Positions 2 through 14,473 of a stretch of 14,473 bases of DNA are shown piece by piece (the stretch's first letter is position 1; each line of letters starts with the position of its first letter). A program made the translations under genes and the position numbers. The notes beneath the pieces are model-generated. The model saw only the letters and a program-made list of their open reading frames with translations, was not told where the DNA came from and did not search any database. Origin of the DNA: Candidatus Omnitrophota bacterium (GTDB lineage Bacteria > Omnitrophota > Gorgyraeia > Velamenicoccales > Velamenicoccaceae). The stretch is from NCBI GenBank assembly GCA_020057345.1, contig JAGVGA010000078.1:1-14473 (forward strand). Reading direction: 5' to 3'.

Positions 2-1120
2 ATGAAGGGCATATTTAAATTTTATCTTGTGCAGATCGAACCTGAGTTCAAGCTCTACATCACCCCCATCCAATTCGATCCCAACGACCCTCCCTTCCCG
101 ATCTCCTACCCTGCAGACTACAGCAGGCAAATAGCTCAAAAACTCGGGCCCTACCACACGCAGGGCATGCCTGAGGACACCTGGTCGATCAACGAATTAA
201 GGTTGACGGAAAAAGAACTCTTAGAGCAGACCGAAGAGATCTTTAAGGAAAAGAAATCCCTGTTTGATTACGAATTAGGCCGCTTTCAGGAAGGCGTGCT
301 CTTCTCTTATTTCGGCATGACCGACACCATCCAACACATGTTCTGGCGCTACACCGACCCCGGGCATCCGCTTTACGAGAAAGATGCGTCCAAAGAGTAC
401 AAAGAGATGATACGAACCTGGTACAAAAAGATGGACGCGGTCGTCGGAGAAGTCCTGAAAAAAATAGGCAAAGACGACACGCTCATCATTCTGTCCGACC
501 ACGGATTCAATACTTTCCGCAGGGCGGTCCATCTGAACACGTGGCTTAAAGAAAACGGATACCTTTACCTGAAAGATCCCCAGGCAAGCGAAGGAGGAGC
601 CCTGCTATCAGATATCGACTGGTCAAAAACAAAAGTCTATGCCATCGGCTTCGGCGCTCTTTATATCAATCAAAAAGGCCGGGAAGCCCAGGGGATCGTC
701 GAGCCGGGCGAAGAGGCAACAAAGATCAAAAAAGAACTGATCCACAAACTCAGCAGCTGGCTTGATGAAAAATACAAACAGCCCGTTGTCTACTACATCT
801 ATAAAAAAGAGGATATCTTCAAAGGAAGGCTCGCAGACGAGGCCCCTGACCTCTATGTAGGATTCAATATCGGCTACAGGGCCTCCTGGCAGACAGCGCT
901 GGGCGCCGTTCCCAAAGACCTGATCGAAGATAACCTGAAAAAATGGTCCGGCGACCACCTCTTCGACCCGAATCTTGTCCCGGGCGTTATCTTCACCAAC
1001 AAGATCATCACCAAGGAAAGCCCGACGATCTACGACATAGCGCCTACGATCCTGAAATTGGCGGGATTAGAAGATAGGAAAACTAAAAAATACGGTTTTC
1101 AGGGGCAGGCCCTGTTCTGA
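2..1120 (+). CDS. Type I phosphodiesterase/nucleotide pyrophosphatase-like (alkaline phosphatase superfamily) protein, C-terminal part; 5' end probably lies outside the window
   Basis: The ORF is open from the window edge, so the ATG at 2 is probably internal. The translation carries the C-terminal half of the NPP/AlkP fold, with metal-ligand-type motifs TLIILSDHGFNTF and KKWSGDHLFDP. The N-terminal half that normally bears the nucleophile is absent from the window. Stop TGA ends at 1120. Confidence 0.75.
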   Translation: MKGIFKFYLVQIEPEFKLYITPIQFDPNDPPFPISYPADYSRQIAQKLGPYHTQGMPEDTWSINELRLTEKELLEQTEEIFKEKKSLFDYELGRFQEGVLFSYFGMTDTIQHMFWRYTDPGHPLYEKDASKEYKEMIRTWYKKMDAVVGEVLKKIGKDDTLIILSDHGFNTFRRAVHLNTWLKENGYLYLKDPQASEGGALLSDIDWSKTKVYAIGFGALYINQKGREAQGIVEPGEEATKIKKELIHKLSSWLDEKYKQPVVYYIYKKEDIFKGRLADEAPDLYVGFNIGYRASWQTALGAVPKDLIEDNLKKWSGDHLFDPNLVPGVIFTNKIITKESPTIYDIAPTILKLAGLEDRKTKKYGFQGQALF

Positions 1121-1130
1121 CGCGTCAAGC

Positions 1131-2510
1131 CTACTGCGCGTATCCCAGGCTTCTGATCTTTTGCTTAAAATCCTCATCCGACTGAAATCTCGCGGATCGA
1201 TACGCACTCGCCCTCAACCTCTCTTGACGCTCTGCTAACAAAAGCTTCATCCTTTCAAAGACATCGCCCTTCTTCTCAGACAGATCGCCGGCCTCCCCGG
1301 GGTCTGACTCCAAATCAAAAAACTGATAGATTTTCCCGGGATAAGCGGGGAAAAAGATCTTTATATATTCGCTGTTTTCGTCTAAAGACTCCGGATACTG
1401 TATAAGTTTCCACGGGCCCTGGATCAAGGCGGTTATATCCCTGTAAAAAGAAAAAAGCTCTCTTCTTTGCGGAGCCCCGATTTTAAGAGAAACGCCCTCC
1501 AGCCCGGGGATCTGATTCTCTCCGATCTCATCTAATATCGTCGGAAAGATATCGATCAGCGCGGCGTTCTCATCGATCTTTTTGCCGAAGGCCTGTCCGG
1601 GCCGCTTCACGATCAGGGGGACCCTGACGATCTCATTAAAAAGCGTAAAGATATGATTAAAATAAAGGTGATGCTCGCCCAAGCTCTCCCCGTGGTCAGA
1701 CGTCAGGATGATCAGGCTCTTGTCGTAAAGGCCCCTCTTTTTCAACCCGTCCAGGAGCTTTCCGATCTCTTCATCCGCATAGCGGATAGCCCCGTCGTAT
1801 TGGGCGATATAATAATTAGGATCGTCGATGCCGTCCTGGGCGATAAGCGCAGGGATATAATCCCATCCGCCTTGATGGGATTTCTCGGATCTGCGAATAG
1901 GCAGAGGTCCGCCGGGTTTAAATGGATACAAGCTCCTGTAAGGCTCAGGCGAGCGATACGGCCTGTGAGAGCCTAAATAATAAACCCATAAAAAAAACGG
2001 CTTTTTTCGGGTCTCGGCCCAATGCAGAGCGGCCTCGGCAACGGAAGAGGGCGAAGGAATGGTCACTACCTCGTCGAGCACGGAACCGAAATTCTTCCTG
2101 AGATTCTCGAAAAAAATCCTCTGGTTACCGAAAACCCCAAGGGCAAAACCGTGGACTTTCAGGGATGAAAAAAGATTGGGCGCGGCCGGGTCCAGGACCG
2201 AATCCCAAAACTGCATCTTGTGTTCAGGCGTATATAGAGAAGTCAGCAGGGAATAATTCGAAGGGATGGTCCAGCTCCCCTGAGAAAAAGCATGGGCGAA
2301 CAGAGTGGCTCGGCGGGCCAGGGCATCGATGTGCGGGCTCGTGGGTCTCGAATACCCGTAACAGCCCAGATGGTCCGGCCGCAAGGCATCCACCATGATA
2401 AGGATGACATTCGGTTTCCCGGCGCCCTCTTTACGGCCAGGCCCCTTAACCAGAAAAAAACCGATAGACAGAAACAGTAAGAAAATGAAGAAGGAAATCT
2501 TTTTTTTCAT
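1131..2510 (-). CDS. Membrane-anchored or secreted sulfatase-fold (AlkP superfamily) enzyme with a Thr-type, NPP-like nucleophile motif; probably not a true sulfatase
   Basis: The ATG at 2510..2508 overlaps the cysN stop TGA at 2509..2507 (ATGA). The N-terminus is MKKK followed by a 17-residue hydrophobic stretch, ISFFIFLLFLSIGFFLV. Sulfatase-fold motifs are present: NVILIMVDALRPDHLGCYGY, ILTSDHGESLGEHH and FDLESDPGEAGDL. The nucleophile region reads SWTIPSNYSLLTSLY instead of C/S-x-P-x-R. The ORF-track start at 2543 is a TTG extension inside cysN and is not favoured. Confidence 0.8.
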   Translation of the reverse strand: MKKKISFFIFLLFLSIGFFLVKGPGRKEGAGKPNVILIMVDALRPDHLGCYGYSRPTSPHIDALARRATLFAHAFSQGSWTIPSNYSLLTSLYTPEHKMQFWDSVLDPAAPNLFSSLKVHGFALGVFGNQRIFFENLRKNFGSVLDEVVTIPSPSSVAEAALHWAETRKKPFFLWVYYLGSHRPYRSPEPYRSLYPFKPGGPLPIRRSEKSHQGGWDYIPALIAQDGIDDPNYYIAQYDGAIRYADEEIGKLLDGLKKRGLYDKSLIILTSDHGESLGEHHLYFNHIFTLFNEIVRVPLIVKRPGQAFGKKIDENAALIDIFPTILDEIGENQIPGLEGVSLKIGAPQRRELFSFYRDITALIQGPWKLIQYPESLDENSEYIKIFFPAYPGKIYQFFDLESDPGEAGDLSEKKGDVFERMKLLLAERQERLRASAYRSARFQSDEDFKQKIRSLGYAQ

Positions 2511-3745
2511 TCCAAGCCGGTGATAACGACGCCTGCGGCGCAAACCTGGCCGTCCGACTCAAGCACAAATCTTCCCAATTCTTCGACAGAGCCAAAAGGC
2601 TCGACGACAAAAGCCCGCTCGGTCTTCAGGATGATTTTGGCCATCTCATTGAGCTTGAGCGAAGCCGCCTCTTTTTCCAAAATCTCCAGGGCCGAAGGGT
2701 CCATGCGGTCACCGATGCTCTCAATCTCGCAGCTCAACTCCTGAGTGGCGCAGCGCAAGATCATCCTTGCCCCGCGGCTTAAAGGCTCATCGCAGAGCCA
2801 GAAGACGCGGCCCTGAAAGCGCTTAAAAGGCACAGGCGCTTTTTCAACCTGACAAAGAACATCCCCGCGCTTGATATCGGAAGAATTTTTTAGGACAACG
2901 CCGATGTTCTCGCCTGCGACGGCCAGGTCCTTCTGTTTAGCGTAAACCCTGATCTCTGCGACGGACGTCTTTTTCCCTGAAGGCAGCACAATCACATCCT
3001 GGCCGCGTTTCAGGCGTCCGGAGGCAACCCTCCCTAAGACCAAGACTTCTTTTTTTACCCTGTAAATATCCTGAACCGGGAAACGCAGCGGCTTATCTTT
3101 TCCTTGCGTCGGACATTCTAGAGAATCCAAAGCGCCCAATAAAGTCGGCCCTTTGTGCCATCGCAGGACCTGTGACCGGCGAAGAACATTTTCTCCGCTC
3201 TTGGCAGACACGGGGATGATCAACGGCGCCTTTAATTTGCTCTTGCTGAAAAAAAGTTCAACCTCAGAGGCTACGGATTCGAATCTGGATCTATCAAAAA
3301 CAGCCAGATCCATTTTATTGACAGCGACAAGGACCTTCTCGATGCCCAACAATTCAAAAAGGGCAATGAGCCTGCGCGTCTGTTCTGTTACGCCCTGCCC
3401 GACATCGACGATGAGGAGGGCGATGTCCGCCTGGGTTGCACCGGTCATCGTGTTTTTGATCAGCTCAACGTGGCCCGGGGTATCGATGAGGCAATACTTT
3501 CTTTTTTTTGTTTTAAAAAAGACCTGCGTCGTGTCGATGGTCCGCTCCTGCCTGCGCTCTTCTTCGAGCTGGTCCAATAAAAACGCCAGCTCCATATCTT
3601 TGCCTAAATCCGCGGAGGCCTTTTTAATCTCAAGAAGTTTTCCGTTGGATAAAGACCGGGTCTCAACGAGGATCCGGCCGATCAGCGTTGACTTTCCATG
3701 GTCAACCTGGCCGCAGATAACTATGGGGATGGCTTTCTTATCCAT
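2507..3745 (-). CDS. cysN: Sulfate adenylyltransferase subunit 1 (CysN/NodQ-type GTPase), short form without an APS kinase domain
   Basis: EF-Tu/CysN-type G motifs are present: GQVDHGKSTLIGRIL (G1), DTPGH (G3), NKMD (G4) and SAKSG (G5). By eye it is collinear with E. coli CysN (PLRFPVQ, VLPSGK and the beta-barrel domains). It lies immediately downstream of cysD. At 412 aa it ends before any CysC-like domain. Confidence 0.85.
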   Translation of the reverse strand: MDKKAIPIVICGQVDHGKSTLIGRILVETRSLSNGKLLEIKKASADLGKDMELAFLLDQLEEERRQERTIDTTQVFFKTKKRKYCLIDTPGHVELIKNTMTGATQADIALLIVDVGQGVTEQTRRLIALFELLGIEKVLVAVNKMDLAVFDRSRFESVASEVELFFSKSKLKAPLIIPVSAKSGENVLRRSQVLRWHKGPTLLGALDSLECPTQGKDKPLRFPVQDIYRVKKEVLVLGRVASGRLKRGQDVIVLPSGKKTSVAEIRVYAKQKDLAVAGENIGVVLKNSSDIKRGDVLCQVEKAPVPFKRFQGRVFWLCDEPLSRGARMILRCATQELSCEIESIGDRMDPSALEILEKEAASLKLNEMAKIILKTERAFVVEPFGSVEELGRFVLESDGQVCAAGVVITGLE

Positions 3746-3780
3746 AAAACCGAATCGGGCGTAACCTGTCTTTGGTGGGA

Positions 3781-4581
3781 TTACATATACCCCAGGCTTC
3801 TCAACCGCTGCATGGTGTACGTATCTTCCTTGTCCTGGGCCCGGCCGCTGCGTTCGGCGACCTTCGTCTTCTCAAGCTCTCGGATGATCTTTGCAATTGT
3901 GTCTGCCCGGGAATCTACCGGAGAACAACAAAGGGCGCACCCGATACTTCGGTAGCGCTTGCCCTTTTTTGCCAGGTAGAGCTCGACGATCGGGATCTTT
4001 TCGGCGAGGGTATACTTCCAGACATCCAGCTCTGTCCAGTGGAGCATAGGGTGAACGCGGATATGCTGTTCGCCCTCGAGCCGCGTCTTATAAAAATCCC
4101 AAAGCTCAGGCGGCTGGTCCTGATAGTTCCAGGTAAAATCCTCGGAGCGCGGGGAGAACACCCTCTCCTTAGCCCGTATGCCGTGCTCATCCCGCCGGAT
4201 AGCCAAGAGCAACGCCTGAAGGCCGCGTTCCCGGATTGTCTGTTTCAACGCCTCGGTCTTCAGTAAATTGCAGCACTCGAATTTGCCGAATTTCGGGTGG
4301 ATACCTTTTTGGAGGGCCTGCGCATTTTTGCTGATGACAAGATCCAGCCCCCATTTTTTGCTGTATTCATCGCGGAAGCGGTAGATCTCCGGGAACTTGA
4401 AGCCCGTATCGATATGAATCACGGGAAAAGGAACCGCGCCGAAAAAGGCCTTGCGTAAGATCCATAAGAGGGCTGTTGAATCTTTCCCCATCGACCACAG
4501 AAAGCCGACATTTTTGAAACGGCTGGTGGCCTCGCGAACGATATAGATGGTCCTGTTTTCCAGATCGCTCAGATAGCTCAT
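3781..4581 (-). CDS. cysD: Sulfate adenylyltransferase subunit 2 (CysD/NodP, PAPS-reductase-like PP-loop ATPase)
   Basis: Contains the PP-loop SMGKDSTALLWILRKAF, plus HIDTGFKFPE, RRDEHGIRAKERVFSPR and HPMLHWTELDVWKY, collinear with E. coli CysD. It lacks the ~30-aa insertion that E. coli CysD has before the C-terminal RxRxxGC segment. ATG at 4581 lies 4 nt after the folE stop. Confidence 0.9.
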   Translation of the reverse strand: MSYLSDLENRTIYIVREATSRFKNVGFLWSMGKDSTALLWILRKAFFGAVPFPVIHIDTGFKFPEIYRFRDEYSKKWGLDLVISKNAQALQKGIHPKFGKFECCNLLKTEALKQTIRERGLQALLLAIRRDEHGIRAKERVFSPRSEDFTWNYQDQPPELWDFYKTRLEGEQHIRVHPMLHWTELDVWKYTLAEKIPIVELYLAKKGKRYRSIGCALCCSPVDSRADTIAKIIRELEKTKVAERSGRAQDKEDTYTMQRLRSLGYM

Positions 4582-7909: not shown

Positions 7910-9478
7910 TTAATGCTTAAAATGACGGATGCCCGTAAACACCATGGCGATGCCGGCCTTGTCTGCCGCGCGGATGACCTCGTCATCCGCTACTGAGCCA
8001 CCCGGCTGGATGATGGCCTTGATGCCGGCCTTCTTGGCTAACGCGATGTTGTCTGCTTTCGGAAAAAATGCATCGCTCGCCAGCACCGCGCCTTTGGCGC
8101 GTTTTCCCGCGCGCTTGATCGCCAAAGCGACCGAATCCACCCGGCTCGTCTGGCCCATGCCGATGCCGACAGTCTGATCGCCCTTGGCCAAAACGATAGC
8201 GTTTGACTTGACGTGCCGGCAAACCTTCCAGGAAAAAATGAGGCTGTCCAATTGAGCTTTCGTAGGTTTTTTCTTTGTTGCGACTTTTATATCCTTGGTT
8301 TCAAAATCTTTTACGTCTTGTTCCTGGACCAGAAGGCCGCCGTCGATCTTTTTCAGATCCAGCCCATGCCTGGCATTTGCGTTTTCGAAAGAAACTTCAA
8401 GCAGGCGCAGATTTTTTTTCAAGCCCAAAAGCTCGAGCGCCTCTTTTTCAAAACCCGGGGCCAGGATGCACTCCAAAAAACCGCTCTTTGAGATCGCTTT
8501 AGCCGCTCTAGCGTCAACGATCCTGTTTAAGCCGACGATGCCGCCGAACGCGGAAAGCGGATCTGTCTTCCATGCCTCCTGGAAAGCCTTAACTAAGTTT
8601 GCGTCCACAGCAACGCCGCATGGATTATTGTGCTTGATGACGCACGCGGCCGGCTTGTCGAAATCTTTGACGATCGTAAAGGCCGCCTGAAGATCAAGAT
8701 AATTGTTGAAAGAAAGTTCTTTGCCGTGGAGCTGCCTGGCCGTAACCAGGGAAGCGGCCACCGACGGGACGTCTTCGTACAGGGCGGCTTTCTGATGCGG
8801 ATTTTCGCCGTAACGGAGCACGGCCGCCTTCTTGAAATTCAAAGAAAGGGTGTCCGGCAAGACTTCCCCTTCTGCCTTTTTCTGATTCAGTTTTGCGCCT
8901 AAATACTGGGCGATCTGGCCGTCATAGCGCGAAGTCAATTTGAAGACTTCGATTGCAAGTTCTTTAAGCGTCCCCTCCGACACGCAGCCATTCGTGCGCT
9001 TCATCTCAGCCGAGATCCCCTCATAGAACCCCGGATCAGAGACAACAGCCACAAACCTGTAATTTTTTGATGCCGAGCGCAGCATGGACGGGCCGCCGAT
9101 ATCGATATTTTCGATCGCCTCCTCTAAGCTCACGCCTTCTTTTTTGATCGTCTGCGCGAACGGATAAAGATTCACCACCACCATATCGATGAGGCCGATG
9201 CCGTGCTTGTTGACCTGCTCCATGTGATCGGGGTTGTCGCGCAACGAAAGAAGGCCGCCGTGGATCTTCGGATGAAGCGTCTTGACGCGGCCGTCGAGCA
9301 TCTCGGGAAACCCCGTATAATCGGACATCTCGACTACGGACAGGCCGGCGCTCTTCAAGGCTTTGGCTGTCCCGCCGGTAGAAATGATCTCGACACCGAA
9401 AGAAGAAAGAAGTTTGGCAAAATCCACGATCCCGGTCTTGTCCGAAACACTGATGAGCGCCCGCTTGATCTTCAACAT
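7910..9478 (-). CDS. purH: Bifunctional AICAR transformylase / IMP cyclohydrolase (PurH)
   Basis: From the ATG at 9478 the protein starts MLKIKRALISVSDKTGIVDFAK (the MGS-like IMP cyclohydrolase domain). It also carries GRVKTLHPKIHGGLL and ends QPGGSVADDEVI...MVFTGIRHFKH. AAGGAG sits 6 nt upstream of this ATG. The 76 extra N-terminal codons of the 598-aa ORF overlap the upstream gene and are not PurH-like. Confidence 0.95.
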   Translation of the reverse strand: MLKIKRALISVSDKTGIVDFAKLLSSFGVEIISTGGTAKALKSAGLSVVEMSDYTGFPEMLDGRVKTLHPKIHGGLLSLRDNPDHMEQVNKHGIGLIDMVVVNLYPFAQTIKKEGVSLEEAIENIDIGGPSMLRSASKNYRFVAVVSDPGFYEGISAEMKRTNGCVSEGTLKELAIEVFKLTSRYDGQIAQYLGAKLNQKKAEGEVLPDTLSLNFKKAAVLRYGENPHQKAALYEDVPSVAASLVTARQLHGKELSFNNYLDLQAAFTIVKDFDKPAACVIKHNNPCGVAVDANLVKAFQEAWKTDPLSAFGGIVGLNRIVDARAAKAISKSGFLECILAPGFEKEALELLGLKKNLRLLEVSFENANARHGLDLKKIDGGLLVQEQDVKDFETKDIKVATKKKPTKAQLDSLIFSWKVCRHVKSNAIVLAKGDQTVGIGMGQTSRVDSVALAIKRAGKRAKGAVLASDAFFPKADNIALAKKAGIKAIIQPGGSVADDEVIRAADKAGIAMVFTGIRHFKH

Positions 9479-9484
9479 GTATCT

Positions 9485-9490
9485 CTCCTT
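9485..9490 (-). promoter_or_regulatory. Shine-Dalgarno (AAGGAG) for purH
   Basis: The minus strand reads TAAGGAGAGATACATG, giving 6-nt spacing to the ATG at 9478. Confidence 0.65.
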
Positions 9491-9518
9491 ATTTAAGGGA
9501 CAGAAGTGTACGTCCCCA

Positions 9519-10220
9519 TTAGACACTGAATTTGAATTCCATGATGTCGCCGTCTTTGACGATATACTCTTTGCCTTCCTGGCGCAGGTGCCCCTCATTC
9601 TTCGCCTGGTTGACATTACCGACTTTAACCAAGGCCTCATACGCCATGACCTCGGCGCGAATGAACCCGCGCGCGATATCCGAATGGATGCAGCCCGCCG
9701 CCTCAATCGCCGTCGCGTCCTTTCTCATCTCCCAGGCGCGCGACTCTTTGACGCCGCCGGTCAAGAAACTGACGCGGCCGGCCTGGTCATAGGCCTTGCG
9801 CGCGAGCACCGGCAAATCATCCGCCTCGACCTTGTCGATCAAAACAACCGGCTTGATCGTAACGAAATTATTATTGGCGATCCACTTCTTTTCCTCCTCG
9901 CTAAAAGTACCGGCGCACAAAGGCATCTCTTTTTCAAGGAGCTGCTGGCAACGGATCAAAAGGGCCTTCTCCTGGTCGCTCGCCGCCTTGGACAGCTTGC
10001 TTTCGACGATCTCCATGTCCATGATGAGGAGGTCCAATTTTTTCTCATTCAAACAGACGATCGCATCGGCATTTTTAAGGTCTTTTTCCGTTATGAATTC
10101 AACCTGAATGGCGGTGACCTTCGCAGAGCGGTAAAGCTCCTTTAACTTCTCCAGGCGCGCGTCAGGCAGGCTCTTTTTTCCAAAAGGAAAATCAGGGATT
10201 CCGAAAACACTGGCTTTCAT
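9519..10220 (-). CDS. YchF/OLA1-derived protein that keeps the helical and TGS (DUF933-like) C-terminal regions but lacks the P-loop NTPase motifs
   Basis: The C-terminal ~85 aa (ESRAWEMRKDATAIEAAGCIHSDIARGFIRAEVMAYEALV...LRQEGKEYIVKDGDIMEFKFSV) aligns by eye with the E. coli YchF C-terminus ([33 protein letters not shown]...[22 protein letters not shown]). The middle region (FSEEEKKWIANNNFVTIKPVVLI) matches the YchF helical insert. No GxxxxGKS/T, DxxG or NxxE motif is present. The ATG at 10220 is favoured, with GGAGAGG about 8 nt upstream. The GTG at 10229 is an alternative start. Confidence 0.75.
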   Translation of the reverse strand: MKASVFGIPDFPFGKKSLPDARLEKLKELYRSAKVTAIQVEFITEKDLKNADAIVCLNEKKLDLLIMDMEIVESKLSKAASDQEKALLIRCQQLLEKEMPLCAGTFSEEEKKWIANNNFVTIKPVVLIDKVEADDLPVLARKAYDQAGRVSFLTGGVKESRAWEMRKDATAIEAAGCIHSDIARGFIRAEVMAYEALVKVGNVNQAKNEGHLRQEGKEYIVKDGDIMEFKFSV

Positions 10221-10228
10221 AGACTTCA

Positions 10229-10237
10229 CCTCTCCTT
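10229..10237 (-). promoter_or_regulatory. Shine-Dalgarno region (AAGGAGAGG) for the YchF-like gene
   Basis: The minus strand reads TTTAAGGAGAGGTGAAGTCTATG. The purine-rich SD lies 8-11 nt upstream of the ATG at 10220, which is too close (2 nt) to serve the GTG at 10229. Confidence 0.55.
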
Positions 10238-10246
10238 AAAGTGGGC

Positions 10247-12205
10247 TTATTCCTCCTCGACCTTATGCCGAGGATACTGGGCGACGATCGACTGCGCGAT
10301 CTTTTGCGGCACTTCCTCATAATGGGAAAAACGCATGGTGTAACTTCCGCGGCCGCCGGTCATGGAACGAAGGTCGGTGGCATAGCGGAACATCTCGACC
10401 AAAGGCACCTGCGCCTTGATCGTCTGGTTTTTTGAACGGGCCTCGACGCCCATAACCCTCCCTCTGCGGGAATTCAGGTCTGACGGGATCGTGCCCATGT
10501 ACTCTTCGGGGACCGTGATCTCCACATCCATGATCGGTTCGAGAATAATTGGAACGGCGTCCATCGCCGCCTTGCGGAACGCAAGAGCCCCCGCGATCTG
10601 AAACGCGATGTCGGACGAATCGACATCGTGATAAGAACCGTCATAGAGGGTGACCCTGATATCAACCATGGGAAAACTTGTGATGACACCCCCCACCATG
10701 GCGTTGCGGATCCCCTTTTCCACCGAAGGAATGAAGTTACGCGGAATCGCGCCTCCGACGATCTTGTCCACAAATTCAAAAGCCTTGCCGCGCTCGATGG
10801 GCGCAAGCTCAATCCACACGTCGCCGTACTGGCCCCTGCCGCCGGACTGCTTCTTGTGTTTGCCCTGCGCCTTAGCCAATTTTTTCACCGTCTCTTTATA
10901 AGGGATCTTCGGCGTGCCGATCTCGACGGCAACGTTGTACCTTTCCTTTAGGCGCTTGACCATGACATCAATGTGCTGATCACCCATGCCTGAGATAACC
11001 GTCTCTTTGGTCTGTGTGTCGCGGGAGACCTTAAATGTTGGGTCGCTTGCGCAAAGCTTGGCGAGAGCCTCAGAGATCTTCTCCTCGTCCTGCCTCGTCT
11101 TTGGCTTGACCGAAGACGAGAAAACCGGTTCAGGAAAAACGATCGGGTCAAAAACCACCTGCTGCTTTTCATCGGAGAGCGTATCGCCCAGAAATGTCTC
11201 TTTGAGCTTGGCGACGGCCACGATATCCCCGCAAAAACCGGCCTGGATCGCGCGCTGCTCTTTACCCTGAAGGATCATGAGCTGACCTATCCTCTCTTTG
11301 GCGGTGCGCGAAGCGTTTAAAAAGCCGGTGTTGGAGGCAAGCTTGCCGGAAAATATCCTTAAGACCGTCAGCTGACCGACAAAAGGATCGGACACGGACT
11401 TAAATACAAACGCGGAAAAAGGCGCGTCTTCAGTCAGCTTGATCTGTTTTTTCTCCTGGGTATTCGGGTCAGAGGCGAAAACAGGCCTTCTGTCCAACGG
11501 CGAAGGCAGGTAATCGACAATGCCGTCCAGCAATTCCTTAAGGCCTTTGTCCGCGAAAGCCGAGCCGACGAAGATCGGATAGATCTTGCCTTCGACCACC
11601 GCACTTTTAAGCGACTTTTTCAGCTCCTCCTCTTTCATCTCTTTTCCTTCCAGATACTTTTCCAATAGGGCGTCGTCGCTTTCCGCGATGGTCTCGGTGA
11701 GCTCTGCCGAGAACGGCGTTTTGATGACGCAGGCGTTTTTGGAAAAACGCTCCTGAAGTTCTTTGATGATCGCCTCGACGCTCACATTCTCCTTATCGGT
11801 CTTATTGATAAAGATGAGCCTCGGTAAGCCCGCTTCTTCCAAAAGGTCCCAGGCGCGCTCGGTCCCGACTTCGATCCCGCCGGAAGCGTCGATCAAAATG
11901 ACCGCGCCGTCCACCGCGCGGACCGAAGAGATCATGTCCGCTATGAAATCCGCATATCCCGGGGTATCGACGATCTGAATAAAATGGTTTTTCCAGTTTA
12001 AGTTCAGGATGCTCGAATTGATGGAGTTCTTGCGGTCGATCTCATCGGCGTTGTAATCGCTGACCGTGTTGCCTTCGATGATCTTGCCTTTGCGCGACGT
12101 AGCGCCGGCGGCAAAAAGGAGGGCTTCGCAAAGAAACGTCTTCCCGGCCTGGGCATGCGAAACAAAAACAACGCTCCTTTTGGCTTCAGGTTTGACATTG
12201 TCCAT
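10247..12205 (-). CDS. Elongation factor G family paralogue (divergent, 652 aa) with non-canonical GTPase motifs
   Basis: All five EF-G domains are collinear with canonical EF-G: SHAQAGKT (G1), DTPGY (G3, with Tyr where His is expected), NKTD (G4), GSAFADKG (G5), YLPSPLD, SGMGDQHIDV, GGRGQYGD, TLYDGSYHDVDSS and YATDLRS. AGGAGA sits 6 nt upstream of the ATG at 12205. Confidence 0.85.
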   Translation of the reverse strand: MDNVKPEAKRSVVFVSHAQAGKTFLCEALLFAAGATSRKGKIIEGNTVSDYNADEIDRKNSINSSILNLNWKNHFIQIVDTPGYADFIADMISSVRAVDGAVILIDASGGIEVGTERAWDLLEEAGLPRLIFINKTDKENVSVEAIIKELQERFSKNACVIKTPFSAELTETIAESDDALLEKYLEGKEMKEEELKKSLKSAVVEGKIYPIFVGSAFADKGLKELLDGIVDYLPSPLDRRPVFASDPNTQEKKQIKLTEDAPFSAFVFKSVSDPFVGQLTVLRIFSGKLASNTGFLNASRTAKERIGQLMILQGKEQRAIQAGFCGDIVAVAKLKETFLGDTLSDEKQQVVFDPIVFPEPVFSSSVKPKTRQDEEKISEALAKLCASDPTFKVSRDTQTKETVISGMGDQHIDVMVKRLKERYNVAVEIGTPKIPYKETVKKLAKAQGKHKKQSGGRGQYGDVWIELAPIERGKAFEFVDKIVGGAIPRNFIPSVEKGIRNAMVGGVITSFPMVDIRVTLYDGSYHDVDSSDIAFQIAGALAFRKAAMDAVPIILEPIMDVEITVPEEYMGTIPSDLNSRRGRVMGVEARSKNQTIKAQVPLVEMFRYATDLRSMTGGRGSYTMRFSHYEEVPQKIAQSIVAQYPRHKVEEE

Positions 12206-12217: not shown

Positions 12218-12266
12218 GTTTGAAATGACAAAAAACGATAAGGCTTAAGGAAGCCAAAAAGAGGGG

Positions 12267-13433
12267 CTATTCGACGTAGGTGTAGATCTTTCCCTTGTAA
12301 TTACGCAGGACATGCTTGCCCTTGTCCTGGGAGATGAGGTAATTCGGGCCGACGGGAATCTTGCCGCCGCCGCCGGGCGCGTCCACCACATAGGTCGGCA
12401 CCGCGTAGCCCGATGTGAAACCGCGCAGTTTTTCAATGATATTGATGCCCACCGCGACCGGCGTACGAAAATGCGCCGTTCCCTTGACCGGATCGCACTG
12501 ATAAATATAGTATGGCCTGACCCTTATCTTCAAAAGCTCATGCATCAGTTTTTTCATGATATAAGGTTTATCATTGATTCCTTTTAAAAGAACGGTCTGA
12601 CTGCCCAGCGGTATGCCGCTGTCGGCCAACATGTCGCAAGCAGCCTTGCACCTCTTGGAGATCTCCCTGGGATGATTGAAGTGCATGCTGATCCATAGAG
12701 GCTTGTATTTTTTGAGCATCGCGACAAAAGGCTCGGTGATGCGCTGCGGCAAAGATACGGGCACGCGCGTGCCCAGGCGGACAAATTCGACATGCGGGAT
12801 CGCGGTGACCTTCTTTAGGATCTCCTCGAGCTCGTCATCTTCCAGCATGAACGGATCGCCTCCGGAGATGAGCACGTCGCGGATCTTTTTATTGGAACGG
12901 ATATAGTCAATAGCGGCGTCGATCGTCTTAGAATTGATGGAAGAAACCTGTTTTTCTCCGACGAGCCTCCGGCGCGTGCAGTGGCGACAGTACATCGCGC
13001 ACTGCTCGGTGCCTAATAGAAGGACCCTGTCCGGATAACGGTGGACGAGGCCGCTGACAGGCGAATCCCTGTCCTCGGCGCACGGGTCAATGAACTCTTG
13101 ATTGCCGAAACGAAATTCGTCGATCAAAGGGATCGCCTGCCGGCGAATCGGACATTCCGGATCATTGGGATCCATAAGCGTCACCCAGTAAGGCGTGATC
13201 GCCATGGAGAGCCTGCCGTTGGATTTTTTGATCCCCTCTTCTTCCTGCGGCGTCAAGACAAGGACCTTGGCAATCGCCTCAAGGGTATGGATTCGGTTCT
13301 TGATCTGCCAATGCCAGTCTTCCCACGACTCTTCAGGGGTATCCTTCCATAGAGAAACCTTTTTGTAATCGCCGATGGAGCTGCGACGAAGGATGACTTG
13401 CGGCTGCTGAAGTTCGATGACGGGGATCGTCAA
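12267..13433 (-). CDS. kamA: L-lysine 2,3-aminomutase (radical SAM/PLP, KamA/AblA type), short form
   Basis: Near-continuous similarity by eye to Clostridium subterminale LAM: WEDWHWQIKNRI, SMAITPYW, DSPVSGLVHRYPDRVLLL, the radical-SAM CAMYCRHCTRRR, HFNHPRE, RVRPYYIYQCD and YVVDAPGGGGKIPV. The only start codon downstream of the upstream gene's stop that keeps the conserved N-terminus is the TTG at 13433. It has GGAGG 5 nt upstream and overlaps the upstream stop (TTGA). The ATG at 13640 would require a 200+ nt overlap. Confidence 0.85.
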   Translation of the reverse strand: MTIPVIELQQPQVILRRSSIGDYKKVSLWKDTPEESWEDWHWQIKNRIHTLEAIAKVLVLTPQEEEGIKKSNGRLSMAITPYWVTLMDPNDPECPIRRQAIPLIDEFRFGNQEFIDPCAEDRDSPVSGLVHRYPDRVLLLGTEQCAMYCRHCTRRRLVGEKQVSSINSKTIDAAIDYIRSNKKIRDVLISGGDPFMLEDDELEEILKKVTAIPHVEFVRLGTRVPVSLPQRITEPFVAMLKKYKPLWISMHFNHPREISKRCKAACDMLADSGIPLGSQTVLLKGINDKPYIMKKLMHELLKIRVRPYYIYQCDPVKGTAHFRTPVAVGINIIEKLRGFTSGYAVPTYVVDAPGGGGKIPVGPNYLISQDKGKHVLRNYKGKIYTYVE

Positions 13434-14434
13434 CTCTCCCTCCCCTCTTTTTTCAAGCCGACGCGCAGAAGAGCGATCTCCAAAATCTTGACGATGAGCC
13501 CGTTGAAAGTCCACCCTTCGGCCTTTGCCACCAGAGGAAAAACATCTTCCGTTGAAAGCGACGGCAGAGGATTGACCTCCAGAACATAAGGATTGCCCTT
13601 TTTGTCCACGCGAAAATCCACTCTTCCGAAATCGCGGCAATCCACCGCCTGATAAGCCTTGACCGCGAGGACGCGCAACTTATCCTCCAGGGCTTTTGAG
13701 ATCTTGGGCGGACAGATATAGCTGACGTCCGTGCCTTTCAGCCGCCGGGAGGTGTAAACAAGATCGCCTAAGTCCAGCTTGCCGAGTATGCCGATCTGCA
13801 CCGGCGCCAGCGCGCACGCAGGATCATTGCCGATGACGAGCACGGTGAATTCGCTTCCTGAAATAAACTCTTCCACAAGGGCGGACTGCTTGTAGATACG
13901 ATTCACCTCCAACACCTGGCCCTTCAATCTCTTTTTGTCCGATACGATCGAATCTTCGGAAATCCCCTTAGAAGACCCCTCATGCCTGGGCTTGACGATA
14001 AAAGGAAATCTCATGGACGTATGGTTTGTCAAGTCCGTACGCTCATCCGCGATAAAAAATTTTGGCGTCGGCACGCCGTCCGCAATGAAAACCTTCTTGG
14101 CCATGGCCTTATCCAGCGTCACGCCGAGGGTCAAGCCGTCGCTGCCCACAAAAGGGATCTTAAAAAAATCCAGGATGACGGGGACCTCGGATTCGCGGTT
14201 CCGGTTCCCCGCGCCCTCGCACATGTTGAAAACGATGTCCACGCCGGGCTTGGGGCACTTAGACAGGAGCTTGCGCGCATGGCCGATCTTGACGACTTCA
14301 TAACCTCCGGAGGCGATCGCTTCACAGACCTCGTTGATCGTCACCTGTCTGTCAAATTCCGCCTTCGCATCATTCGGCGATTCTTTGGTCTTTCGGTGGT
14401 CCGACTTTAAATCGTAAGTGAGTCCTATTCTCAT
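13430..14434 (-). CDS. D-alanine--D-alanine ligase family ATP-grasp enzyme (non-canonical subfamily, substrate unknown)
   Basis: Ddl-type ATP-grasp motifs are present: FPFIVKPRHEGSSKGIS, VEEFISGSEFTVLVIG and FGRVDFRVDKKGNPYVLEVNPLPSL. The N-terminus MRIGLTYDLKSD...AEFD differs from housekeeping DdlA/B. ATG at 14434 is favoured. The frame stays open to the window edge (14473), so a longer N-terminus cannot be excluded. Confidence 0.8.
   Translation of the reverse strand: MRIGLTYDLKSDHRKTKESPNDAKAEFDRQVTINEVCEAIASGGYEVVKIGHARKLLSKCPKPGVDIVFNMCEGAGNRNRESEVPVILDFFKIPFVGSDGLTLGVTLDKAMAKKVFIADGVPTPKFFIADERTDLTNHTSMRFPFIVKPRHEGSSKGISEDSIVSDKKRLKGQVLEVNRIYKQSALVEEFISGSEFTVLVIGNDPACALAPVQIGILGKLDLGDLVYTSRRLKGTDVSYICPPKISKALEDKLRVLAVKAYQAVDCRDFGRVDFRVDKKGNPYVLEVNPLPSLSTEDVFPLVAKAEGWTFNGLIVKILEIALLRVGLKKEGRES
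13439..13443 (-). promoter_or_regulatory. Shine-Dalgarno (GGAGG) for kamA, embedded in the last codons of the ATP-grasp gene
   Basis: The minus strand reads GGGAGGGAGAGTTGACG. GGAGG lies 5 nt upstream of the TTG at 13433, and the same stretch encodes G-R-E-S-stop of the upstream gene. Confidence 0.6.
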
Positions 14435-14473
14435 GAGATCGCCCTTAAAGAAAAAGGGACCCTTGCCTTTCAA

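Follow-up and report, generated by a model that had tools for sequence, protein, structure and literature searches.

In a 14,473-nucleotide (nt) stretch of Candidatus Omnitrophota DNA (contig JAGVGA010000078.1; hereafter the window), a gene for a Ddl-like ATP-grasp ligase overlaps kamA, the gene for a lysine 2,3-aminomutase (LAM) of the KamA/AblA type. Comparison with related loci strongly supports the view that this ligase works in connection with KamA rather than as an ordinary housekeeping Ddl, as the initial annotation of this DNA had suspected. With a confidence a little better than even, we further propose from sequence that the two genes constitute a self-contained 2.2-kb module for making a beta-lysine-containing amide, in which beta-lysine would be one of the partners of the ligase.

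Both genes are on the minus strand. The ligase gene (13430..14434) encodes 334 amino acids (aa), from an ATG at 14434..14432 to a TGA at 13432..13430, and kamA (12267..13433) encodes 388 aa from a TTG at 13433..13431. The ligase stop and the kamA start share a 4-nt TTGA overlap (13430..13433), and a GGAGG Shine-Dalgarno sequence (13439..13443) lies within the last ligase codons, 5 nt before the TTG, all as initially annotated. That annotation regarded this TTG as the only plausible kamA start. It is not the sole candidate, since two more canonical starts lie upstream in the same frame (TTG 13640 and GTG 13514). Neither of these has a good Shine-Dalgarno sequence, the 27-69 residues that they would add have no support from homologues, and the independent gene call on contig L081, whose ligase is identical to that of the window, gives the same 388-aa KamA and the same 4-nt overlap; TTG 13433 is therefore the best start. 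The exact 4-nt overlap recurs at 18 of the 47 ligase-to-kamA junctions in related loci, mostly with a TTG start like that of the window, and is thus not due to chance. In every phylum sampled, the junctions between ligase and kamA genes overlap or nearly do so. The earlier claim of tight translational coupling is supported by this layout, but the co-stoichiometric expression that was claimed along with it cannot be demonstrated from sequence.

Conservation of the ligase-kamA pair

Related loci were collected in a scan of one genome per species, with a ligase alignment as the query, and kamA was then sought by tblastn with the window proteins. Among the 80 loci obtained, kamA is adjacent to the ligase gene in 71, and these make up all but one of the 72 informative loci; in eight of the nine loci without kamA, the contig breaks off on the side on which the gene would be expected. 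The pairing spans at least seven phyla, including Omnitrophota, Elusimicrobia, Margulisiibacteriota, Chloroflexota/Dehalococcoidia, Thermodesulfobacteriota and Bacillota, and an archaeal metagenome-assembled genome (MAG), so that the adjacency is not a peculiarity of the source genome. The genes flanking the module are unrelated from phylum to phylum, and none of the loci contains mur/fts genes. Taken together with the Ddl cut-offs that the ligase fails and the changed residues of its D-Ala site (both described below), this near-complete adjacency upholds the suggestion of a ligase tied to KamA. The sole informative locus without kamA, in a Myxococcales MAG (L074, 4465-7095), encodes an 876-aa fused double ATP-grasp protein, whose two tandem Ddl-like domains share 35-37% identity with the window ligase; kamA is absent within 5-6 kb of it.

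The usual form of the module, which had been overlooked initially, contains two paralogous ligases, as 60 of the 80 loci carry two ligase genes. A neighbour-joining tree of the ligases, rooted on E. coli DdlB, separated three groups. Clade A is universal and holds the window protein as well as the single ligases of Elusimicrobia and Bacillota; Omni-B, a second Omnitrophota clade, branches near A; and the more divergent clade B' is found in Chloroflexota, Thermodesulfobacteriota and the archaeon. The catalytic residues are kept in all three clades, and all three score under the Ddl cut-offs. The gene order is ligase A-ligase B-kamA in Omnitrophota and kamA-ligase A-ligase B' in Dehalococcoidia. 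The lineage of the window, the Velamenicoccus group of Omnitrophota, has the minimal one-ligase form, which is also that of its nearest relatives, and in a longer contig with an identical ligase no second ligase gene was found within 2.3 kb upstream.

The pair also occurs in cultured bacteria. A query with a Bacillota member retrieved the family from Caldicoprobacter algeriensis, C. guelmensis and Clostridium thermosuccinogenes, and in the latter two the ligase gene is followed directly by a gene for a 367-371-aa KamA with the same motifs. The setting of the pair in C. thermosuccinogenes consists of glycoside hydrolase genes, and in C. guelmensis it lies between rubrerythrin and the L21-L27-Obg cluster. 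Because the bare pair sits in wholly different surroundings in these two Clostridia, we infer that the two genes move as a unit.

Several lineages have further genes at the module. In Thermodesulfobacteriota (L056, 7005-9499; L054, 6795-9446), ligase A is separated from kamA-ligase B' by two inserted genes, one for a PAS histidine kinase and one for a sigma-54-dependent response regulator, which suggests a condition-specific control of the module. The Dehalococcoidia operons add four genes (L080, 7988-8473; L060, 5633-7375; L067, 4111-4722; L079, 371-691), encoding a 160-aa GNAT, a 580-aa protein in which an unannotated N-terminal domain, GNAT-like by eye, is fused to a histone-deacetylase (HDAC)-type domain, a MarC/NAAT membrane protein and, upstream, a winged-helix regulator; at E 1e-5, the 160-aa GNAT was not hit by the AblB model. 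In C. thermosuccinogenes, genes for an AAC(3)-type aminoglycoside N-acetyltransferase and a metallo-beta-lactamase-fold protein lie 3-4 kb downstream of the module (L085, 12974-13735).

Residues and folds of the two enzymes

Residues 25-388 of the window KamA align to the LAM of C. subterminale (PDB 2A5H; E 3e-144). The CxxxCxxC cluster, CAMYCRHC (aa 145-152, nt 13001..12978), comprises Cys145, Cys149 and Cys152. In the 2A5H alignment, Asp314 of YQCD (nt 12494..12492) corresponds to LAM D293, Asp351 of VVDAPGGGGK (nt 12383..12381) to D330, the pyridoxal phosphate (PLP) lysine of the latter motif, Lys358 (nt 12362..12360), to K337, and Arg154 to R134, the carboxylate contact; D293 and D330 are the contacts of the epsilon-ammonium group. 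The cluster, the PLP lysine and both Asp residues are thus kept as initially described. The equivalents of the Cys triad, R134, D293, D330 and K337 are invariant in all 66 full-length KamAs of the module. Among the curated models, the window KamA narrowly passes only the lysine 2,3-aminomutase equivalog TIGR03820 (528.7 against a cut-off of 525.4) and stays under the cut-offs of the glutamate (473.6 vs 650), arginine (404.9 vs 600) and EpmB (239.5 vs 369.3) models. Its C-terminus corresponds to LAM residue 367 of 416, an endpoint shared by 36 of the 66 module KamAs, and the others are 10-60 residues longer. From the single passing model and the invariant substrate contacts, which support the lysine specificity assigned earlier, we conclude that KamA is, by predicted activity, a lysine-specific 2,3-aminomutase of the LAM/AblA type.

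The ligase matches the Pfam family Dala_Dala_lig_C (8.9e-35), and its AlphaFold (AF2) model, with a predicted local distance difference test score (pLDDT) of 92.3, adopts the Ddl fold. The best matches are Ddl structures, with template modeling (TM) scores of 0.77-0.84 at 22-26% identity, and Ddl or D-Ala-D-Lac ligases account for every one of the top 50 PDB folds (TM 0.67-0.85). The ATP-binding, Mg-binding and catalytic residues K109, K148, E188, R271, D273, E286 and N288, which correspond to K97, K144, E180, R255, D257, E270 and N272 of DdlB, are kept and are invariant in all of the paralogue groups; the equivalent of DdlB Ser150 is kept as well. We compared the ligases with curated Ddl models, including TIGR01205, NF002378 and the equivalogs. 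The best NCBIfam Ddl score of the window ligase, from the broadest model, was 181.8 against a cut-off of 243, and the protein failed all other Ddl/Van models too. The other module paralogues scored 126-200 against the same cut-off of 243.

Profile alignments to DdlB, whose pockets had initially been proposed for comparison, revealed changes at residues of the D-Ala site. In the hidden Markov model (HMM) alignment to DdlB, Tyr216 is replaced by Leu232 in the window ligase and by Leu or Ile in clade A. Ser281 is replaced by Asp297 (nt 13546..13544), which is invariant in Omnitrophota clade A; in Chloroflexota and Clostridia the Asp sits one position later, at the equivalent of Leu282, and it is kept throughout clade A. 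Profile alignments place an invariant Glu73 at DdlB His63. The acceptor sites of the paralogues are altered in other ways, with Tyr216 to Glu and Leu282 to Asn in Omni-B, and Tyr216 to Trp, Gly276 to Asp and Ser281 to Ala in B'. In the N-terminal substrate loop, an invariant TYDLK...AEFD with an insertion of about 10 residues takes the place of the Ddl GGxSxE motif, and in the structural model Glu26 of AEFD, at the N-terminus of helix 1, may stand in for the DdlB donor-site residue Glu15.

A proposed ligation of beta-lysine and its alternatives

In the pathway that we favor, KamA would first turn free L-lysine into beta-lysine by radical S-adenosylmethionine (SAM) and PLP chemistry, as its fully conserved substrate-binding residues suggest. 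Free lysine is the expected substrate because the conserved Arg134, Asp293 and Asp330 contacts require it. The coupled clade-A ligase, of a family that derives from D-Ala-D-Ala ligase, would then use ATP to form an acyl phosphate and, from it, an amide, a step suggested by the gene linkage and the active-site changes. Beta-lysine might serve as donor, as acceptor or as both, and the product would be a dipeptide or an isopeptide. An acceptor site that lacks the carboxylate-binding Ser281 and has gained an Asp would suit an acceptor with a positive charge, for example lysine or beta-lysine, and the invariant Glu73, Glu26 and Asp28 could hold both amines of a beta-lysine donor. Where a second paralogous ligase shares the operon, as in most lineages, it probably attaches a further residue or alters one. 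For the final product, a soluble small molecule is most likely, for example a stress or compatible solute or a polycationic metabolite, whereas a cell-wall precursor is unlikely.

Several observations weigh against this proposal. The match of Glu26 to Glu15 comes from its position in the model and a manual alignment, as the HMM alignments stop short of the N-terminus. The family profile scores 142 bits against the Yersinia Ddl and only 45-60 bits against three other deposited Ddls, and in a tblastn comparison E. coli DdlB is 28-36% identical to the module ligases. The divergence is by itself weak proof of a different function, since the family is no farther from some canonical Ddls than Ddls are among themselves. 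The accessory genes vary by phylum and give no consistent hint of the product, and the linkage of the two genes could reflect a relationship less direct than proposed.

That the ligase is an ordinary or redundant D-Ala-D-Ala ligase for peptidoglycan, with a meaningless kamA neighbor, seems to us very unlikely. The Ddl fold and the complete catalytic machinery would suit such a role, and the Joint Genome Institute (JGI) labels family members D-alanine-D-alanine ligase. A tblastn search of the 84 retrieved loci with the E. coli DdlB sequence, checked by known residue numbers, found the module's own ligases and no separate canonical ddl, which also counts for this role. Omnitrophota are reported in a preprint to have complete peptidoglycan pathways, with ddl (K01921) in 176 of 176 complete genomes; the KEGG Orthology (KO) term may, however, hit the module ligases themselves, as counts at this level do not tell them from canonical ddl. 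Two papers on the cell walls of Omnitrophota or of the Planctomycetes-Verrucomicrobia-Chlamydiae (PVC) group report ddl at the KO or COG level only, and a third Omnitrophota paper mentions neither peptidoglycan nor D-alanine. Against the housekeeping role stands the adjacency to kamA in all but one informative locus, despite gene orders and flanks that vary across phyla, and the lack of mur/fts genes in all of the loci. The acceptor-site residues Tyr216 and Ser281 are replaced, and all paralogues score under the curated Ddl cut-offs. The NCBI names are mostly generic, too: where listed, they read 'ATP-grasp domain-containing protein', 'D-alanine--D-alanine ligase family protein' or hypothetical, with two records excepted. 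Moreover, the family is abundant in MAGs of Dehalococcoidales, whose cultured members have no peptidoglycan, and in Clostridia it would be an extra gene.

We also consider it distinctly unlikely, if slightly less so, that beta-lysine is put on a macromolecule, either the lysine or diaminopimelate side chain of a peptidoglycan precursor or a protein modified in an EF-P-like but EpmA-free manner. Proteins (RimK, LysX) and peptidoglycan precursors are known targets of ATP-grasp enzymes, with the enterococcal D-aspartate ligase acting on the precursor side chain, and a beta-lysyl-lysine linkage is known on EF-P. In addition, translation genes recur beside the module in independent contexts, namely in Omnitrophota, in locus L007, in an Elusimicrobia MAG and in Caldicoprobacter. 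However, no such genes surround the module in C. thermosuccinogenes, Dehalococcoidia, Thermodesulfobacteriota or the archaeon, and efp, epmA and carrier-protein genes are not nearby. KamA is of the LAM/AblA type and falls short of the EpmB model, the nearest folds of the ligase are all small-molecule ligases, and the presence of the family in Dehalococcoidales speaks against a peptidoglycan target. The narrower idea that the ligase carries out an EpmA-independent beta-lysylation of a protein, perhaps a translation factor, or makes a free N-epsilon-(beta-lysyl)-lysine-type unit for translation, appears highly improbable from the sequences; if true, the beta-lysyl-lysine linkage, which to date is known from EF-P alone, would have a second enzymatic route that arose by convergence. 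Another alternative, which is unlikely but deserves more weight, is that the two genes share a pathway or regulon and the ligase does not use beta-lysine itself, acting instead on a modified (e.g., acetylated) beta-lysine or making a separate co-solute. The Dehalococcoidia operons, with their GNAT and GNAT-HDAC fusion, make acylated intermediates plausible, and the sigma-54 two-component pair of Thermodesulfobacteriota suggests a condition-specific regulation. Yet the minimal module in several phyla consists of two genes with overlapping frames, so that any intermediate step must be encoded elsewhere, and the Dehalococcoidia GNAT is not matched by the AblB model.

Surrounding genes, known systems and significance

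The complete genome of Candidatus Velamenicoccus archaeovorus (CP019384.1) has the same synteny as the window. Its genes run Era, M20 peptidase, PAC2, HAD, ABC ATPase, a 269-aa protein, ligase A and KamA, followed by EF-G, a short YchF, PurH, FolC, MnmE and FolE; its locus tags, sought for expression data, are absent from the supplements of the paper on the enrichment culture. The longer contig with the identical ligase has a 284-nt intergenic region with a promoter-like TTGACA-17-TGTGATAAT, and the pair probably has its own promoter because of this site. The 5' leader of the ligase gene can fold into a GGGAC...GTCCC hairpin, with a run of T between it and the start codon (window 14444-14473, minus strand; L081, 2237-2285), the 5' arm of which falls outside the window. 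This hairpin could be an upstream terminator or an attenuator; it matched no Rfam family, and an Rfam search upstream of the module in 15 sources gave no matches and no lysine riboswitch. At the other end, a weak terminator-like hairpin on the minus strand (GGCTT-CCTT-AAGCC with a T-rich tail, 12242..12255) lies in the 61 nt that separate kamA from the EF-G gene and may mark the end of the two-gene unit. It is suggestive at most, because such sites are not more numerous in the region than in shuffled sequence. PADLOC gave zero hits to defence systems at the module.

Three sets of neighbors were rejected as parts of the module. The upstream block of Omnitrophota (Era, M20 peptidase, PAC2, HAD, HypE-like and UPF0280) is phylum-specific synteny, the HAD hydrolases of V. 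archaeovorus and C. thermosuccinogenes share merely generic similarity, and the 265-aa and 269-aa proteins of unknown function are unrelated.

Translation genes are found near the module in several lineages. A 652-aa EF-G is encoded in most Omnitrophota loci (window 10247-12205, minus strand), and elsewhere the neighbors are PheT with a 1036-aa EF-G-like protein (L007, 2661-5771), RimP-NusA-IF2 in the Elusimicrobia MAG (L052, 1880-5879), and RF2 and L21-L27-Obg in Caldicoprobacter (L086, 5098-6202 and 10936-14155). These neighbors may be there by chance, yet they are reminiscent of the beta-lysylation of EF-P. After EF-G follows a short YchF-like gene (window 9519-10229, minus strand; L084, 15017-15718), whose product of about 233-236 aa retains the C-terminal DUF933 and has lost most of the GTPase domain (TIGR00092 score 131 vs a cut-off of 279); about 22 loci of Omnitrophota have this short form conserved at that position. 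The mechanical purH open reading frame (ORF) of the window (7910-9706, minus strand; 598 aa) overlaps the YchF-like gene. The true start is near 9478, because PurH models align only from about residue 79 and the product called on L081 has 522 aa. At the far end of the window are a phosphodiesterase-like protein, a sulfatase and, beside FolE, a CysN/CysD sulfate adenylyltransferase (ORFs 2-1120, plus strand; 1131-2543 and 2507-4581, minus strand); the CysN has no APS-kinase domain, and these genes look unrelated to the module.

To our knowledge, beta-lysine has a handful of known fates, none of which involves an ATP-grasp ligase. The genes of these fates were initially noted as missing from the window, and we confirmed that neither the window nor the related loci contain an AblB-type GNAT, EpmA, EF-P, a nonribosomal peptide synthetase (NRPS) or KamDE. 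The AblA/AblB system resembles the module in that KamA passes the AblA equivalog and that an aminomutase and one beta-lysine-modifying enzyme make up a two-gene operon, whereas the partner here is an ATP-grasp ligase and not a GNAT. We rejected an N-epsilon-acetyl-beta-lysine system of this type, as no GNAT is encoded in the window and that of Dehalococcoidia misses the AblB model. In the EpmB/EpmA system, a KamA-family aminomutase likewise feeds beta-lysine to an ATP-dependent enzyme, which forms an amide on a lysine epsilon-amine; however, EpmA is a paralogue of class II aminoacyl-tRNA synthetases and works through an acyl-adenylate, whereas ATP-grasp enzymes use an acyl phosphate. Beta-lysylation of EF-P by EpmA/EpmB was also set aside, since KamA fails the EpmB model and the window and related loci contain no aminoacyl-tRNA-synthetase-like or EF-P gene.

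The closest logic in known biology, which had not been considered before, is that of PylB/PylC. In that system, the product of a radical-SAM lysine mutase is coupled by an ATP-dependent ligase to a second lysine through the epsilon-amine of the latter (PMC8225853). The pylC gene lies directly downstream, with its ribosome-binding site inside the mutase gene (PMC8225853). In the module, too, the ribosome-binding site of the downstream gene lies within the upstream gene, but here the downstream gene is kamA, as the Omnitrophota order puts the ligase first, and PylB is not a PLP-dependent member of the KamA family. PylC is not among the best 60 PDB sequence matches of the ligase family nor among the top 50 folds, and the resemblance is functional only, because PylC is no close relative of the module ligase. 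The pyrrolysine pathway itself was rejected: the ligase is not PylC-type, the mutase is not PylB-type, and no pylD, pylS or tRNA-Pyl is present with the module.

Compared with Ddl/VanA-type ligases, the module ligase shares the three-domain fold, the residues for ATP, Mg and catalysis and, likely, the mechanism of amine attack on an acyl phosphate, and it is of similar length. It differs from them in falling under the family cut-offs, in its TYDLK...AEFD loop and its changed Tyr216, Ser281 and His63 positions, and in standing beside kamA and never in a mur/fts context. Free dipeptides are also made by other ATP-grasp ligases (ATPGD1, bacterial L-amino-acid ligases such as BL00235, and Ngg of the N-acetylglutaminylglutamine amide (NAGGN) osmolyte pathway), but these are distant in sequence, with a weak match of BL00235 (3VOT) to the ligase family at E 3e-9. 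They have no link to an aminomutase and are not known to use beta-lysine. Carnosine synthase ATPGD1, which makes beta-alanyl-histidine, is an ATP-grasp enzyme that activates a beta-amino acid (PMC3407494). No paper linking KamA with an ATP-grasp enzyme was found in the searchable literature library, outside of which lies the Iyer/Aravind survey of ATP-grasp enzymes.

Both enzyme families are already known and ATP-grasp dipeptide ligases are common; what is new is the widespread pairing of KamA with an ATP-grasp ligase, which the compared loci support well, and probably the beta-lysine product. Several of the phyla that carry the module (Omnitrophota, Dehalococcoidia and Elusimicrobia) are known almost solely from metagenomes, and the cultured thermophilic Clostridia that have the pair are tractable hosts for direct tests. 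If the module does make a beta-lysine peptide, either a new metabolite, of primary metabolism or of stress, or a new modification would be defined, and pathway calls that score the module ligases as peptidoglycan ddl would be corrected. Thousands of genes that currently bear the name 'D-alanine-D-alanine ligase' or 'ATP-grasp domain protein' would also gain a function.

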